64,000 nucleotides of DNA from positions 7,722-71,721 of the forward strand of contig CAWJFW010000006.1 in assembly GCA_963842305.1 (NCBI GenBank), given 5' to 3'. Positions 9,330 to 60,956 of the stretch are shown here, piece after piece. Origin of the DNA: an uncultured Actinomycetes bacterium. Its GTDB lineage: Bacteria > Actinomycetota > Thermoleophilia > Gaiellales > Gaiellaceae. The position numbers and the translations under genes were made by a program. Position 1 is the first letter of the stretch, and each line of letters begins with the position of its first letter. The notes beneath the pieces were generated by a model. It was not told the DNA's origin. It saw only the letters and a list, made by a program, of their open reading frames with translations, and did not search any database.

Positions 9330-12300
9330 CTAGGGTCCGACCGAGACGAGCCGGTCGACCGCGACGTTCGTAAGCCGCACCTCGCGCCCCGTCGGATAGC
9401 GCACGATCAGCGCCTGCAGCTTCGTGGCATCGCCGAGGCCGAAGTGCAGGCGCGGATCCTCCGACGACAGGTAGCTCCCGCCGGCCTGAACTTCCCTGAC
9501 GAGCCGACGCCCGCCGGGGAGCACGGCCGTGACCTTTGCACCCGGCGCGAACGTGCGGAGCTGCACCTCGAGCCAGTGCCCCGCGGCACCCGAGTTCCGT
9601 AGGAGGACGAGCCGCCCGGCGATCGAGCCGACCGCCACGTCGAGGTCGCCGTCGTTGTCGTAGTCGGCAGCTGCCAGGCCGCGCCCGTTGACGACCGGAC
9701 CGTTTGCCAGGCCGACTCCCGCGCTCACGTCGGCGATCTCCCCCCCGCCGCCGAGCACCTTGATGGGCTCCGCGTCCTCCTCCAGATTCGTCAGCGGAAT
9801 CGCGCCGTTCGCCAGCGCGAGGTCGAGACGCCCGTCGAGGTCGAGATCCGCCCACGAGACGCCCCAGCCTGCGAGGGTCGTGTCGAACGCAGAGGCGAAG
9901 TCCGGCCGCGCGTCTGCGAACTCTGACGCGGGGCCACGGCTGCGGAAGACGCCGTGGAGCTGGTGATGGGAGTTCGTCACGAAAAGATCGGGGCGACCGT
10001 CGCCGCTCGCATCGGCGGCCGCGATGCCCATGCCCGCGTTCCGGTCGTCGACGCCGGCCGCGCCTCCTCGCTCCTCGAAGCGGAACCCGAGCTCTCCGGC
10101 AGCCGGGACGTTCAGGTAGAGCCGGTTCGGATCGAGGTCGTTGGCGACGTAGAGGTCGACCCGCCCGTCGCCGTCGACGTCGGTGAACACGGCCCCGAGA
10201 CCGTGCTCGACCGCGTTCGTCTCGATCCCCGCCTCGTCCGTGACCTCGCGGAAGCGCGCATGCCCGGCGGCGTCCAGCCCGTCGTTCACATAGAGCCGGT
10301 CGCGAACGCCGGCGTAGGTCGAGGGGAAGCCGGAAGCGCCCTCGACCGGCGCATTCAGGTCCGCGTAGCCCGCGACGAACAGGTCGGGGCGCCCGTCGGC
10401 GTTCACGTCGCCGACCGTGGCCGCGGTGTGCCAGCCGTACGTGTCGATGCCGGCCGCGCGCGCGCCGTCGACGAACTTGCCGCCGCCCTCGTTCCAGAGG
10501 AGCGCGTCGTAGCCGGTCGCGGTCACGTAGAGATCCGTCCGCCCGTCTCCGTTGAAGTCGGCGGCGACGCACCCGTTCCCTCGCACCTGCAGGTCGGCGC
10601 CGGAACCGCGGCTCACGTCCGTGAACTTCCCGTTCACGTTCCGGTAGAGAGCGTTCCTCGGAAGGCCTCCGCGCTCCTTCCAGCGCGCGACGTCCACCGC
10701 GATCGAGTGGGAGTTGACCGCGTAGAGGTCGAGCCACCCGTCGTTGTCGAAGTCGAGCCAGCAGACCCCGCCGCCCATCATCGCCACGGGATCGGGCGAG
10801 GTCTCGAACCGGAAGGCGCCGTGTTGGAAATCGAGCCCCACGTGCCGGGCGACATCGACGAGGTGGATGCCGCCGAGCCCCGCCCCCGTCGTGACCGGCC
10901 CCGCGACCGGCGTCCCGCTGCCGACGTTCGTCCCCCCGCGCGATCCGATGATCACGTAGCGGCCATCCTGAAGGTCGAGCACGAGGACCTGCCGGAAGGA
11001 CGCCGGGTCGCCGCGGCTCTCGACCTGAGGGGGTGAGCCCGAATACGTGACGAGCTCTCGCGTGCCGGAAACCGTGGCGATGACGAGCGGTGCGGCCTGG
11101 CCGTCGCTCGGCTCCAGCGTCAGCTGCGCCCGCTCGACGTGGTAGTCGGGGGCGACCACCTCGGGGCCACGGGCGTCGATCTGCTTCCAGAGAGCAGCGA
11201 GACGTGCTCCGGCCGCGGCCTCGGTTGCTCGCTGCCGGTCACGGCCGGCGAGGGCCTCCCCCTCGACCCGGAGATTCGCGACGAGATCGCTTGCGATCCG
11301 GACCGCAGTCGCCCGGTCGATCTCCGTCGAGACGCCCTCGGTCGGGACGACGGTGATCTCCGGCAGCTCGCCGGCTTCGAGGACTGGGACGCTCGCGGCG
11401 GCCGTGTCGGTCCTGGCGGGACCGCCGGCGAGGACGACGAGGCCGGCGAACGCAGCCGAGCCCACGAGCGCCAGCGAGACGACGCGGAGGCGACCGCTCG
11501 GAGCCCACGGCGCGCCGATCCTCCCGCCGAGGATCTCGGCGACGGGACGGGCGGCGCAGACGAGCGCGAGTGCGCCGAGGACGGCGACCTTGGTTCCGAA
11601 CTCGGTCGTCTGCGGGGCGATCAGGAGCGTGGCCAAGAGCCCGATCCCGACGGCGTAGGCGCGCCGGCCGCGCCGGCCGGCCGGAATCGTCTTCGGGTCG
11701 GTGATCATGAAGAAGAGGAAGACGAGGATCTCGGGCGAGAAGACGAGCACGCGCCAGAACTCCCAGCCCGTGACCGGGCCGAGATGCCAGCGCGAGGTCA
11801 TCTCGTGCCCGCTCGCCGCCAGCACGGCGATGCCCACGGCGAAAGCGACCCAGAAGAAGATTGCGATCTCCAGGAGGCGGAGCCGGGTGAGGATCGCGAG
11901 TCCGCCGACGAGGATGACGGCAAGCGCGAGCCCCATCCAGACGGACATCGGCCCCCACCAGAGATCGAGCGGATCGGCCCGCGCTGCGCCGAGCAGCAGG
12001 AAGCAGAGGACGAGGCCGAAGTTCGACGGGTTGAAGACATGGCGGCCCCGGAAGGTGATGACGTACTTCGAGAGCAGCGCGACTGCGGCCGTCCCCGCGA
12101 AGATCCACCAGCCGTGCAGGCTCCACCAGTCACCGTGCTCCGTTCCGGGCACTCGGAGGACGAAGGCGACGCCGTTCCCGGTCAAGAGCGCGCTCGCGGG
12201 CCACATGAGCACCTGCTGGCGACGAAGGGTGATCCCGACCTCCAGCACGGCGCACGTGAGGAGCGAAACCAGGATCTGCGCGATGGAGAGCTGGAACCCG

Positions 12301-49231: not shown

Positions 49232-49885
49232 GTGCAGCCCGAGCCGAGCGCGATCGCGCATCGCACCCGACCGGCGGCCGGTGAGCCTGTCGGCGCTCTC
49301 GTCCTGTTCCACGGACGCGGCGCCGACGAGCTCGACCTCCTCCCTCTGCTCGACCTCCTCGACCCGCAGCAACGCCTGGTCGGGCTCCTCCCGCGAGGCC
49401 CGCTGGCACTGCCGCCCGGCGGCGCGCACTGGTACGCGGTGCGGGAGATCGGCTTCCCCGACCAGGACACGTTCCTGGCGACTTTCGCCGCGGTCTCCGC
49501 TTGGCTCGAGGAGGCGCTTTCCGAGGCCGGCGTCCCCCCGGAGCGCGTCGTGTTCGGCGGCTTCTCCCAGGGAGCGGTGATGTCCTACGCGCTCGGCCTG
49601 GCCGCCTCACGGTCGCGTCCGTCGGGAATTGTCGCCATGAGTGGGTTCATCCCGACGGTCGACGGGTTCGAGCTCGGGCTCGAGAGCCGCTCGGGCCTCC
49701 CGGTCTCGATCTCCCACGGGGCGTACGACCCGGTGATCAGCGTCGACTTCGGGCGCGAAGCGCGCGACCGTCTCGACGTGGCGGGGCTCGACGTCAGCTA
49801 CCGGGAGGATCCTGTCGCCCACCAGATCGCGCCCGCGGCGGTCACCCAGGCCCGGGCGGTGCTCGAGCGGGCACTTCCGGACTAA
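49232..49885 (+). CDS. Alpha/beta hydrolase, phospholipase/carboxylesterase family
   Basis: ..LVLFHGRGADE.., nucleophile elbow GFSQG, and distal ..HG..D.V.. motif. Confidence 0.8.
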   Translation: MQPEPSAIAHRTRPAAGEPVGALVLFHGRGADELDLLPLLDLLDPQQRLVGLLPRGPLALPPGGAHWYAVREIGFPDQDTFLATFAAVSAWLEEALSEAGVPPERVVFGGFSQGAVMSYALGLAASRSRPSGIVAMSGFIPTVDGFELGLESRSGLPVSISHGAYDPVISVDFGREARDRLDVAGLDVSYREDPVAHQIAPAAVTQARAVLERALPD

Positions 49886-51410
49886 GCCCGCCAGTACGCC
49901 CTGGTCAGAAGCGCGACGACGGGCACGATCTCGAGCCGGCCGAGCCACATGAGGCCGGTCATGATCCCGATCGAGACGTCGCTGAACGGTTCGAAGGAGC
50001 CCATCGGCCCGGCGAATCCAAAGGCCGGGCCCACATTCCCGAGGGTCGTTGCGGAGGCCGCCAGGGCGTCGAAGGGCGAGAGCTCCAGATCGACCCTGTG
50101 GGCGTCCAGGAGGAGCAGAACGGCGCCGACGACGAAGATGCCGACGTAGAGGAGCACAAACGCGATCACCGCGCGCACCGTGCGCTCGTCGATCGCGACG
50201 CGGTTGACGCGGATCGGCGCCACGTACTCCGGGTGCATCGTCTGGTCGAGCTCCCGGCGCAGAACCCGGCCGATGACGAGATGCCGGACGATCTTGATCG
50301 AGCCCGCCGTCGAGCCCGCGGAGCCGCCGGGAAACATCAGCGCGACGATGAGCATCGCTGCCGCTGGAGCTGCGACGACCCAGGTGGCGAAGTCGGTGCT
50401 CGCAGAAGCCCGTGGTGGTCATGATCGAGACCGTCTGGAACGCCGCCTGACGGATCGCCTCCTCGCCCTCGCTAAGACCGGCGTCCCAGAGAATGACTGC
50501 GAGAACCGCAGAGGCGAAGAGGAGCAGGCCGAGGTAGAGACGAAACTCCTCGTCGCGCACGAGCGCAACCGGCTTGCCCCGCACGAACGCGCGGTACAGA
50601 AGCGCGAAGTTCGCGCCCGCGATGGCCATGAAGAGCACGAGCACCCATTGCGAGGCGGGTGCGTACCCCTCCAGCGACCGCGGGTCGATGCCGAAACCAC
50701 CGGTCGGCATTGCCGAGAACGCATACGCGGTGGCGTTGAAGAGGTTCATCCGCCGGTCGACCCCGGTCCAGCCGAAGACGGCGAGGATGAGCGATCAGCA
50801 GCCCCGTCAGCGCGACGTAAAGCAGCCACAGACGTCTCGCGGTATCCCGAATCGAGGCCGTCAGCGCCTCGAGTTCGGGACCGGGCGCCTCGGACTCCAT
50901 GAGCTGCCTGCCGCCGACCCGCAGCCGAGGCAGCACGGCGAGTGCGAGCACGATGATCCCCATGCCCCCGAACCACTGGGTGAACTGCCGCCACATCGCG
51001 AGCGACTTGTCGAGCGTCGACACATCGGCGACGACGCTGGAGCCGGTCGTCGTCATCCCGGACATCGCCTCGAAGAGGGCGTCCACCGGGCGTGAGAGCT
51101 GGTCCTCGCCCGAGAGGACGTAGGAGAGCGCGATCGCCGCCGAGCCGAGGAGCCAGGTGAGCGAGACGACGAGGAACCCCTCCCGGAGACCCACGCGCTC
51201 TTTCCCCCGTGTCACCCTCTCGACCCCCCAGCCGACGAGCGCCGTGATCGCTCCGGCCGCGGCGTAGTACCACCACGGTTCGGAGTAGCCCAGGGCAAGC
51301 GGAATCGGGAAGATGAACGCGGCCGAGAGGTACTTGAGTAGGACCCCGACGAGGTTGAGGGCCGCGCCGACCTCGACGTTCACGCTTCGCCGCAGCCGCC
51401 CCAGGATCAC
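49882..51410 (-). pseudogene. trkH: trkH (Trk potassium uptake, membrane subunit) disrupted by two frameshifts
   Basis: Three consecutive minus-strand ORFs (50472..51410, 49607..50749, 49882..50355) each carry one contiguous third of a TrkH sequence. The frame changes near 50790 (..LTGLLIA / ILAVFGWTGVDRRMNLFNA..) and near 50404 (..SIMTTTGF / ASTDFATWVVAAPAAAMLIVALMFPGGSAGSTAGSIK..). Confidence 0.8.
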
Positions 51411-52861: not shown

Positions 52862-53410
52862 TTACGTGGAGTCCCACTCCGGCTCACCGTCGATGCCGAC
52901 GCCCTCGGCGATCCGGTTCACGTAGTTGAAGTAGGAGACGACCTGAATCGCGTCGTGAATGGCGGCGTCGCTCCACCCGTGGCCGCGGAGAAGATCCGCG
53001 TCCTCGACGGTCACGTCCGCCGGCGCAGTCGTGAGCTTGAGGGCGTAGTCGCAGAGTGCGCGGACGCGCGGTTCCAGGTCGGCGTTGCGATAGTCGTGCA
53101 TCGCGTGCTCGGCCAGATCGTCGGGTGCGCCCTCGGCACGGAGGTCGTCTGCATGCGCGCGCAGTCAGTAGTGACAGCCGTTGGCCGTCGAGACGACGAC
53201 GGCAAGCAGCTCGCGCTCGGCCCGCGAGAGCTCGGAGGGCCCGAACATGATCGCCTGGTAGAGCGCCATGGAGCGGTTGAGGACGAGCGGGTTCAGGCAC
53301 ATCGCCTTGACGATGTTGAAGACCTTCCCCGCGCGCCCGAGGGCCGCGGCGTACTCCTCCGCGAGCTGCCCTTCGGCCTCGCCCACCTCGATCTGCTTGA
53401 TGTGCGGCAC
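52862..53410 (-). CDS. AhpD-like / carboxymuconolactone decarboxylase family peroxidase-related protein with one in-frame TGA (candidate selenocysteine codon or nonsense mutation)
   Basis: Track ORFs 53165..53845 (distal part) and 52862..53101 are in the same frame and separated only by the TGA at 53165-53167. Read-through gives ..LAVVVSTANGCHY[TGA]LRAHADDL.., the NGCxxCLxAH AhpD signature. GTG start at 53410. Confidence 0.7.
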
Positions 53411-53440
53411 GAGGCTCAGCCTTGCATCTACGCCTACGGG

Positions 53441-53935
53441 ATGCAATCGTCGCCGCCCCTGGCGACTGTCGGAGACGAATTTCGCTCGCTTCTGCGCGGC
53501 TTTCCCGCCGGCGTCGCCGTGCTGACCGTGGACGACGGGGGCGAGCGGCTCGGGCTGACCGTCGGGACGACGCTCTCGCTCTCGCTCGAACCGCCGCTCG
53601 TCGGCGTCTCCGTGAGCCGGCAGGCAGCCATGCACGAGCTGCTGCGACACGCGGGCGGATTTGCGCTCAGCCTCCTTGCCGGCGATCAGGAGGCCGTGGC
53701 CCAGCATTTCGCCCGCGGTGTCCCGCCGCTCGCTCACTGGCACGGCATCGAATGGCGGGAGGGCACGGCCGGCGGCCCGCTTCTCGACGGCGCCCTCGGC
53801 TGGATCGAGGCGCGGGTCGTCGACGAGCACGAGACCGGCGACCACACGCTCTTCGTCGGCGGAGTCGTGTCCGTCCAGCAGGGGCGCTCGGGCCCTGCTC
53901 TCGTCAGGGTCGGACAGGAGTACGCGGGCTTGTGA
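53441..53935 (+). CDS. Flavin reductase domain protein (FMN-binding split barrel)
   Basis: ..FRSLLRGFPAGVAVLT.., ..TVGT..S.SLEPPLV...... and ..GDHTLFVG.V pattern. Confidence 0.8.
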   Translation: MQSSPPLATVGDEFRSLLRGFPAGVAVLTVDDGGERLGLTVGTTLSLSLEPPLVGVSVSRQAAMHELLRHAGGFALSLLAGDQEAVAQHFARGVPPLAHWHGIEWREGTAGGPLLDGALGWIEARVVDEHETGDHTLFVGGVVSVQQGRSGPALVRVGQEYAGL

Positions 53936-60465: not shown

Positions 60466-60672
60466 CGCCAGCTACTTCACCGCGGCGCGGCGAATCCCCC
60501 TTCATGGGGACGGAATCCAGTCCCTCCCAGGTCATCATGCTGGGTGCCGGCTCCCCTCACATATCCCCCGGCGTCTGGCGAATGCCCGTTTCGGTCGTGC
60601 GGCTCCTAACCCACCGAGGCGGGCTTCGTCGCATCTTGGGGTCGAAGAGACGCTGGTACCATGGCCCGGCAC

Positions 60673-60763
60673 GGAGAAGTGGCCGAGTGGCTGAAGGCGG
60701 CGCCCTGCTAAGGCGTTAGGGGGGTGATTACCTCCCTCGAGGGTTCGAATCCCTCCTTCTCCG
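60673..60763 (+). tRNA. tRNA-Ser (anticodon GCU)
   Basis: GGAGAAG acceptor stem pairs with CTTCTCC; anticodon loop CUGCUAA; long variable arm; T arm GAGGG-TTCGAAT-CCCTC. Confidence 0.95.
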
Positions 60764-60791
60764 TTCCGCAGAGCGCTCGCACCAGACCGTC

Positions 60792-60880
60792 GGAGGGGTG
60801 GCAGAGCGGACGAATGCGGCGGTCTCGAAAACCGTTATCCGTCGTTAGGCGGATCGAGGGTTCGAATCCCTCCCCCTCCG
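60792..60880 (+). tRNA. tRNA-Ser (anticodon CGA)
   Basis: GGAGGGG acceptor stem pairs with CCCCTCC; anticodon loop CUCGAAA; long variable arm; T arm GAGGG-TTCGAAT-CCCTC. Confidence 0.95.
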
Positions 60881-60956
60881 CCTTCCCCTTGCTCGGGTTC
60901 GGCCCGGCGGCGAAACCACCGAGCGACATGGAGATGCCGAGGCCGACCCTTGCCGA

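Follow-up and report, generated by a model that had tools for sequence, protein, structure and literature searches.

The question raised by this locus is whether a TGA codon lying in frame within an AhpD-like gene of a Gaiellaceae bacterium is a true stop, a defect of the gene or of its assembly, or the codon for a selenocysteine (Sec) placed in a CxxC-type redox motif. A sequence-only reading of the window (the whole stretch of 64,000 nucleotides analysed here) had proposed the last of these possibilities, leaving a nonsense mutation or a base-call error as the competing explanation.

A Single Reading Frame Encoding an AhpD-Like Protein

On the minus strand of the window, one frame can be followed from a GTG at position 53410 to a TAA at 52862-52864, and the sole internal stop in this frame is the TGA at 53165-53167, which occupies codon 82. 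The two open reading frames that a mechanical search delivers for this region, 53165..53845 and 52862..53101, share that frame. The predicted complete selenoprotein gene (52862..53410, minus strand) comprises 182 codons, with a GTG start, the TGA as Sec codon 82 and a TAA stop, and its junction reads ...VVVSTANGCHY[TGA]LRAHADDLRAEG..., so that frame, start and junction are as first described. The GTG start is backed by the orthologues, which are colinear with the gene over its full length and share the same beginning, V/M-P-H/N/Y-I/L-R/K.

When the stop at codon 82 was replaced by Cys for profile scoring, the product reached 152.3 bits against TIGR01926 ("peroxidase-related enzyme", NCBIfam; cutoff 81.8), the match running from residue 8 to residue 177 of the 182 and from position 7 to position 177 of the 178-position profile. 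It also matched the Pfam family PF02627 (CMD) and the AhpD domain profile TIGR00778 (ahpD_dom; 48.8 bits vs a cutoff of 27.8). The cutoffs of two other profiles were not reached: NF041238, which describes the AhpD_rel_CFYUT (seleno)protein (56.7 bits vs a cutoff of 175; the motif here is CHYUL), and TIGR00777, which describes AhpD of the M. tuberculosis type (26.2 bits vs a cutoff of 191.95). Because this last cutoff was missed, the protein is classed as AhpD-like only, and not as AhpD proper. Judged from these sequence comparisons, the locus very probably holds one gene, not two, whose product is an AhpD-like thiol/selenol oxidoreductase of 182 residues belonging to the TIGR01926 subfamily.

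The TGA Occupies the Position of a Redox-Active Cysteine

The predicted redox motif is C79-H80-Y81-U82 (TGT CAC TAC TGA; 53165..53176, minus strand), the TGA at 53165-53167 being the predicted Sec codon. Five structures deposited as "uncharacterized peroxidase-related protein" or AhpD (2pfx, 3c1l, 2oyo, 2prr and 6k40) could be aligned with the product over about 150 residues, with E values from 5e-31 to 2e-21. In 2pfx (E = 5e-31) the segment N-K-C-F-Y-C-L-V-A-H, and in 3c1l (E = 4e-27) the segment N-H-C-Y-Y-C-L-T-A-H, align to N-G-C-H-Y-[TGA]-L-R-A-H. A sequence match at E = 5e-31 is close enough to settle both fold and motif. Structures of the TIGR01926 type, mostly structural-genomics entries described as uncharacterized, share with the product this N-x-C-x-Y-C-L-x-A-H helix, yet all of them carry Cys, not Sec, at the second position. 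Full-length homologues at a greater distance likewise present CHYC, CDYC or CEYC at the TGA site, and a few present CxxS or AxxS. The TGA is thus placed opposite Cys both in the relatives of known structure and in the distant homologues, which bears out the claim that it stands for the second Cys of the CxxC motif.

The proposed equivalence with Cys133 of M. tuberculosis AhpD, the reductase of the peroxiredoxin AhpC, was supported as regards position. Profile positions 111-149 of TIGR00777 align without gaps to residues 60-98, and E67, C79, U82 and H86 fall on positions 118, 130, 133 and 137, respectively. The published proton relay of the M. tuberculosis enzyme is made of Glu118, Cys130, His132, Cys133 and His137. 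The core AhpD motif E-x11-C-x-x-C-x3-H is therefore present as E67, C79, U82 and H86, with Sec in place of the second Cys, and the two proteins share the relay spacing E-x11-C-x-x-C/U-x3-H and, as PF02627 suggests, the CMD fold. They differ in that the motif is found in the middle of the protein here and near the C-terminus there, and in that Y81 occupies the position of His132; a Tyr is also found at the His132-equivalent position of P. aeruginosa PA0269.

Two groups of homologues deserve a separate mention. In a related clade at 50-55% identity (P0022, P0027, P0033, P0035 and P0040), the redox motif has been lost (NRCRYS, NGAHYS, NGARYS) while the remaining protein has been kept, as might be expected of paralogues of the selenoprotein that are redox-inactive or of the 1-Cys type. 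The Cys-form homologue P0026 (L047 930-2889; also L048) shares what looks like an operon with genes for an HTH regulator of the ArsR type, a protein resembling MerT/HMA mercury transporters and another small CMD protein, an arrangement that hints at a role in metal or thiol stress for some members of the family.

A Constrained RNA Block Downstream of the UGA

Insertion of Sec in bacteria calls for an RNA element (SECIS) downstream of the UGA, and a small hairpin, CCUC-CGUGCC-GAGG, had been pointed out as starting 21 nt past this codon. Its position was confirmed: with the U of UGA taken as nt 1, it occupies nt 24-37, which correspond to 53144..53131 of the window. The hairpin lies within the predicted bacterial SECIS core, GACGACCUCCGUGCCGAGGGCGC (53127..53149, minus strand; nt +19 to +41), and these 23 nt form the longest run in the gene that is conserved in at least 95% of sequences. 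Constraint in this block acts at the nucleotide level. The synonymous-codon entropy of codons 88-95 was 0.13 bits, compared with 0.74 bits in the other conserved codons (permutation p = 0.00045), and the Arg codon of the block was CGU in 32 of 32 sequences, although CGU accounts for 7.7% of the Arg codons of the window. For an identical peptide (AHADDLRSEG), a Cys homologue has CUU, CGG and GGA instead, which indicates that the peptide does not dictate the nucleotides of the block. The block starts 15 nt downstream of the TGA; the hairpin core was found once per locus, always 18 nt after the TGA, and nowhere else in the window and the loci compared.

Two overlapping folds of modest energy can be drawn. 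In model A (-6.5 kcal/mol), the stem is formed by G19-C41, a bulged A20, C21-G40, G22-C39, an A23/G38 mismatch and the pairs C24-G37, C25-G36, U26-A35 and C27-G34, closing an apical loop C28-G-U-G-C-C33 (CGUGCC). Model B (-6.7 kcal/mol) has a GUGCC/GGCGC stem with a GAG loop, and is the one picked by RNAalifold from 36 sequences. Model A is preferred here, on three grounds: it spans exactly the invariant block; the sole variant within the hairpin (C33 to A, in L009) falls in its loop and would break the closing pair of model B; and U30 would form in model B a G-U wobble that the preferred codon CGC should improve, so that its fixation fits a recognised base in the loop of model A.

Conservation and covariation of the downstream structure among orthologues had been proposed as checks. 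Conservation was observed, as no other nucleotide stretch of the gene is conserved so strongly, whereas no covariation was detected in the hairpin across the aligned orthologues; because the block is invariant, covariation can prove neither fold. The single-sequence fold of the 81 nt downstream was not more stable than that of shuffled sequences (z = +1.06), and the evidence for an RNA signal is thus its conservation, not its folding energy. The L-R-x-E-G peptide itself tends to encode a self-complementary CUN...GAG, and in the Cys homologue a weaker hairpin (-5.3 kcal/mol) is possible at the same site. A search of Rfam at a permissive threshold gave chance-level matches and no SECIS family. 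From the nucleotide constraint, the block from nt +19 to +41 is predicted to be a bacterial SECIS, able to fold into a small hairpin with a G-containing loop.

As modelled, this candidate would resemble the fdhF-type SECIS of E. coli in having a stem-loop located within the coding sequence directly past the UGA, a small apical loop with a G in it (G-U in this case) and a stem interrupted by a bulge or mismatch. Its stem, however, is shorter and weaker, and its base lies 15-20 nt from the UGA; in the E. coli SECIS, 11 nt separate the codon from the minimal upper stem-loop. In a distant relative (L049; about 41% identity, 29% GC) this codon is again TGA, with a conspicuous GC hairpin of 6 bp after it, which suggests that the use of Sec at the CxxU position recurs across the family.

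tRNA-Sec, selA and selB Are Linked to the Gene in Relatives

No tRNA-Sec, selA or selB was found within the 64-kb window. A tandem pair of tRNA genes at 60672-60882, about 7 kb from the gene and kept in most syntenic loci, consists of ordinary tRNA-Ser(GCU) and tRNA-Ser(CGA) genes and holds no tRNA-Sec. The machinery appeared in two of the orthologous loci, L027 and L034, where ARAGORN placed a tRNA-Sec about 0.5 kb and 3.4 kb upstream of the orthologue, respectively. Both tRNAs exceeded the gathering score of Rfam RF01852 (68.6 and 64.1 bits vs 47), and both loci encode, at most 10 kb from the orthologue, SelB (TIGR00475; 338 and 347 bits, cutoff 242) and SelA (TIGR00474; 535 and 529 bits, cutoff 268). 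With SelA of L027 as query, more than 120 distinct clusters were recovered at 78% identity or above, several of them labelled Gaiellaceae. On three further Gaiellaceae megabase contigs, selA-methyltransferase-selB clusters were found, two of the three with a tRNA-Sec just downstream, and SelB in Gaiellaceae sel clusters carries the SECIS-binding domain PF09107. The presence of tRNA-Sec, SelA and SelB in the lineage is thus documented both on the orthologue contigs of L027 and L034 and in other Gaiellaceae. In the sel clusters L043 (10001-15478), L044 (10001-13961) and L045 (10001-15218), a conserved O-methyltransferase (PF00891, with the dimerisation domain PF08100) sits between selA and selB. 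It is sometimes joined in Gaiellaceae by a GNAT acetyltransferase, and in L027 a GNAT gene (9530-9985) lies between the tRNA-Sec and the AhpD-like gene.

Of the Sec machinery that had been proposed as a check, one component was not found: a tblastn search with an E. coli SelD sequence as probe revealed no selD in about 0.9 Mb of loci. This result counts in favour of a read-through of the UGA that does not yield Sec, either because a near-cognate tRNA, helped by the hairpin, inserts Trp, Cys or Arg, or because the Sec machinery inserts Cys at low selenium. Read-through might also, in principle, be promoted by a conserved structure downstream. Nevertheless, a TGA at a Cys site, a SECIS-like hairpin at bacterial spacing and co-located tRNA-Sec, selA and selB genes constitute the classical signature of a selenoprotein, AhpD-like proteins are already an accepted selenoprotein family, and the relay would no longer work with Trp or Arg in place of the equivalent of Cys133. 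Read-through of this kind is therefore regarded as very improbable, even if it is the best surviving of the alternatives to Sec.

Conservation of the TGA and Selection on Both Halves of the Gene

Orthologues were sought in one genome per GTDB species, which yielded 36 loci with 64-86% protein identity, labelled Gaiellaceae, Thermoleophilia, Actinomycetota or "uncultured Actinomycetes". The TGA was present at the identical codon in all 37 sequences (the window plus these 36 species-level Gaiellaceae genomes). In none of the 36 did TGC or TGT take its place, the Cys codon being found in the more distant homologues described above, and across the 37 species the stop was always TGA and never TAA or TAG. 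A pairwise Nei-Gojobori comparison of 32 ungapped sequences gave a dN/dS of 0.33 for codons 1-81 and of 0.31 for codons 83-177. Purifying selection is thus equal on both halves, which argues that the region past the TGA is translated.

Gene callers and the NCBI annotation treat the locus as two genes, an example being P0044, a 103-aa "peroxidase-related enzyme" from a Gaiellaceae MAG. About 20 public N-terminal fragments that were inspected (100-116 aa) all end in ...N[D/G/E]CHY, and public C-terminal fragments start directly past the CHY point. Taken at face value, these annotations would mean that translation ends at the TGA and that polypeptides of 81 and about 100 residues assemble non-covalently. 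However, no conserved start codon follows the TGA, as the next codon is CTG, ATT, ACG, ATC, ATA, CGC or others, and a Met first becomes common at codon 104, where only 20 of 32 sequences have one. In addition, the break would cut through the C-x-x-[C]-x-x-x-H catalytic helix, the stop is TGA in every one of 37 species, and tRNA-Sec, selA and selB are linked to the gene in two genomes. A split gene is accordingly considered still less probable than read-through without Sec.

The explanation that the sequence-only reading had itself set against Sec, namely that the TGA is a nonsense mutation in a decaying pseudogene or an error of base calling or assembly, starts from frame disruptions that are real: trkH is spread over three frames in the window, and the AhpD-like gene itself is frameshifted in several orthologues from long-read MAGs (L030, L031, L032 and L036). 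Against it, all 37 sequences, obtained from different species and samples with different assemblers, have the TGA at one and the same codon, constraint is as strong on the downstream half as on the upstream one, and the TGA stands in for precisely the catalytic Cys. The TGA is likewise kept in L046, an independent assembly of a close relative whose gene is 96% identical in nucleotides. Conservation and equal dN/dS together exclude this explanation for practical purposes. Finally, a genome-wide reassignment of TGA (genetic codes 4 or 25), to which the W shown at the TGA site in the JGI calls P0001-P0005 would point, has a negligible chance of being correct, since TGA ends 23 of the 54 window ORFs selected by third-position GC content and a scan of about 0.9 Mb turned up no further in-frame TGA that recurs.

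The JGI records just mentioned are "full-length" calls that read CHYW, the TGA being rendered as Trp. The same rendering was observed in P0077, and the JGI and ENA calls concerned include high-GC contigs. We infer that the CHYW calls arose when a metagenome gene caller settled on a code-4 model for contigs of about 1 kb. Scans for further in-frame TGAs with coding signal on both sides, over about 0.9 Mb of related sequence, returned nothing recurrent: the hits were adjacent genes in the same frame and antisense artefacts, with no second selenoprotein.

Sec is supported by the integrity of the gene, the TGA in all 37 sequences, the Sec/Cys pairing, the constrained downstream block and the linkage of tRNA-Sec, selA and selB to the gene in relatives. 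On this comparative evidence, the UGA at codon 82 is predicted to encode selenocysteine in a C-H-Y-U active site, with a probability that we put at roughly 0.93.

Gene Neighbourhood

Upstream of the AhpD-like gene lie a flavin reductase-like gene and a gene for a HAD hydrolase, and trkA and trkH are found downstream; no ahpC is adjacent. The flavin reductase-like neighbour, in divergent orientation at 53441-53935, was identified as announced (PF01613, 136 bits). The suggestion that it might form a redox pair with the AhpD-like protein was not supported. The flavin reductase and HAD genes are indeed adjacent in 31 of the 36 loci, but in these same 31 loci an entire block of about 15 kb (trkH, trkA, HAD, fabF and ligD) is syntenic, and in the five most divergent loci the pairing is gone along with the whole block. 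Since synteny extends over the block, adjacency to the flavin reductase is not specific evidence for a redox partnership. In two of these five loci, the AhpD-like gene lies beside sel genes.

The frame disruption of trkH noted earlier in the window was verified and found to comprise two breaks. On the minus strand at 49885-51395, residues 7-207, 208-338 and 339-509 of the L001 orthologue are encoded in frames -3, -1 and -2, respectively, and the breaks, near 50792 and 50398, correspond to two single-base frameshifts, which may be either assembly indels or the mark of a real pseudogene. In the gene calls of L046, TrkH is also fragmented, together with S8 protease and ligase genes, and by blastn the window trkH (49886-51378) aligns to two consecutive stretches of L046 12479-15534. 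In several loci the C-terminus of trkH lies about 4.5 kb, and not about 3 kb, from the AhpD-like gene. Some relatives may therefore have two tandem copies of trkH, compared with one in the window.

A Known Selenoprotein Family in a Probable New Lineage

That AhpD-like proteins belong to the reported bacterial selenoprotein families, as had been stated in proposing this candidate, is supported by publications since 2005. In that year, Zhang, Fomenko and Gladyshev described AhpD-like (COG2128) proteins with a CxxU motif as a new selenoprotein family, represented by 27 sequences from the Sargasso Sea (PMC1088965). In the GOS survey, "AhpD-like 1" ranked fourth among the families in abundance, its Sec forms numbering 299 and its Cys forms 902 (PMC2398784), and the family is listed in reviews of 2022 and 2026 (PMC9312934, PMC13188914), the entry in the latter being "AhpD-like protein, TIGR01926, CxxU". 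AhpD-like selenoproteins have been found in a few complete genomes, and Actinobacteria have been known to use Sec since 2006 at the latest.

The Gaiellaceae protein shares with this family a TIGR01926 score above the cutoff, a CxxU motif with Sec at the position of the second Cys, widespread Cys homologues and, as predicted, a small hairpin past the UGA whose apical loop contains a G. It departs from it in two respects. The members described come mainly from marine metagenomes and from a few Firmicutes or Deltaproteobacteria, whereas the present ones belong to high-GC soil Gaiellaceae (Thermoleophilia, Actinomycetota); and the sequence of the predicted SECIS is specific to this lineage and essentially invariant. 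The protein is thus a new member, and Gaiellaceae a new lineage, of the known AhpD-like CxxU selenoprotein family. No report specific to selenoproteins in Gaiellaceae was found in the literature searched.

A mechanism can be outlined by analogy with better-known systems. SelA would make Sec-tRNA(Sec) from Ser-tRNA(Sec) and selenophosphate, and SelB would carry it to the ribosome, competing there with release factor 2, while the C-terminal winged-helix domain of SelB would bind the small hairpin located 15-38 nt past the UGA, as is standard in bacteria. In the folded protein, Sec82, at the Cys133 position of the Glu-Cys-x-x-Cys-x-x-x-His relay, would be the attacking nucleophile, if homology with AhpD is a valid guide. 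A selenenylsulfide between Sec82 and Cys79 would then form as a peroxiredoxin-type partner or a hydroperoxide is reduced, and a thiol or dithiol donor would presumably reduce it again.

Implications

The most immediate consequence concerns annotation. In dozens of Gaiellaceae MAGs and in many metagenome contigs, this gene is either split in two or has its TGA read as Trp; the two pieces ought to be joined under a single selenoprotein annotation, and "CxxW" calls in public data could serve as a cheap flag for missed selenoproteins. The case also illustrates that an in-frame TGA at a Cys of a CxxC motif can be told apart from an assembly error by cross-species codon conservation, even in a window that bears frameshifts.

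For the organisms, probable Sec use with a conserved (predicted) SECIS and a selA-selB-tRNA-Sec cluster is now documented in Gaiellaceae, a family that enters this comparison through many MAGs from soil and other environments. As CxxU AhpD-like proteins are among the more abundant of the known bacterial selenoprotein families, the finding is biologically unsurprising. A bolder idea, offered as a speculation that is more likely to be wrong than right by a wide measure, is that the AhpD-like protein is the main or only client of the Sec machinery in Gaiellaceae, perhaps ancestrally located in the neighbourhood of the sel genes; in the two most divergent lineages examined, the gene does lie beside tRNA-Sec, selB and selA. 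According to a published generalisation, the Sec trait is maintained by FdhA or SelD selenoproteins (PMC1794560). Should the idea be true, an abundant aerobic soil clade would be an exception to that generalisation, and the invariant SECIS would represent a compact recognition element for SelB across the whole lineage.
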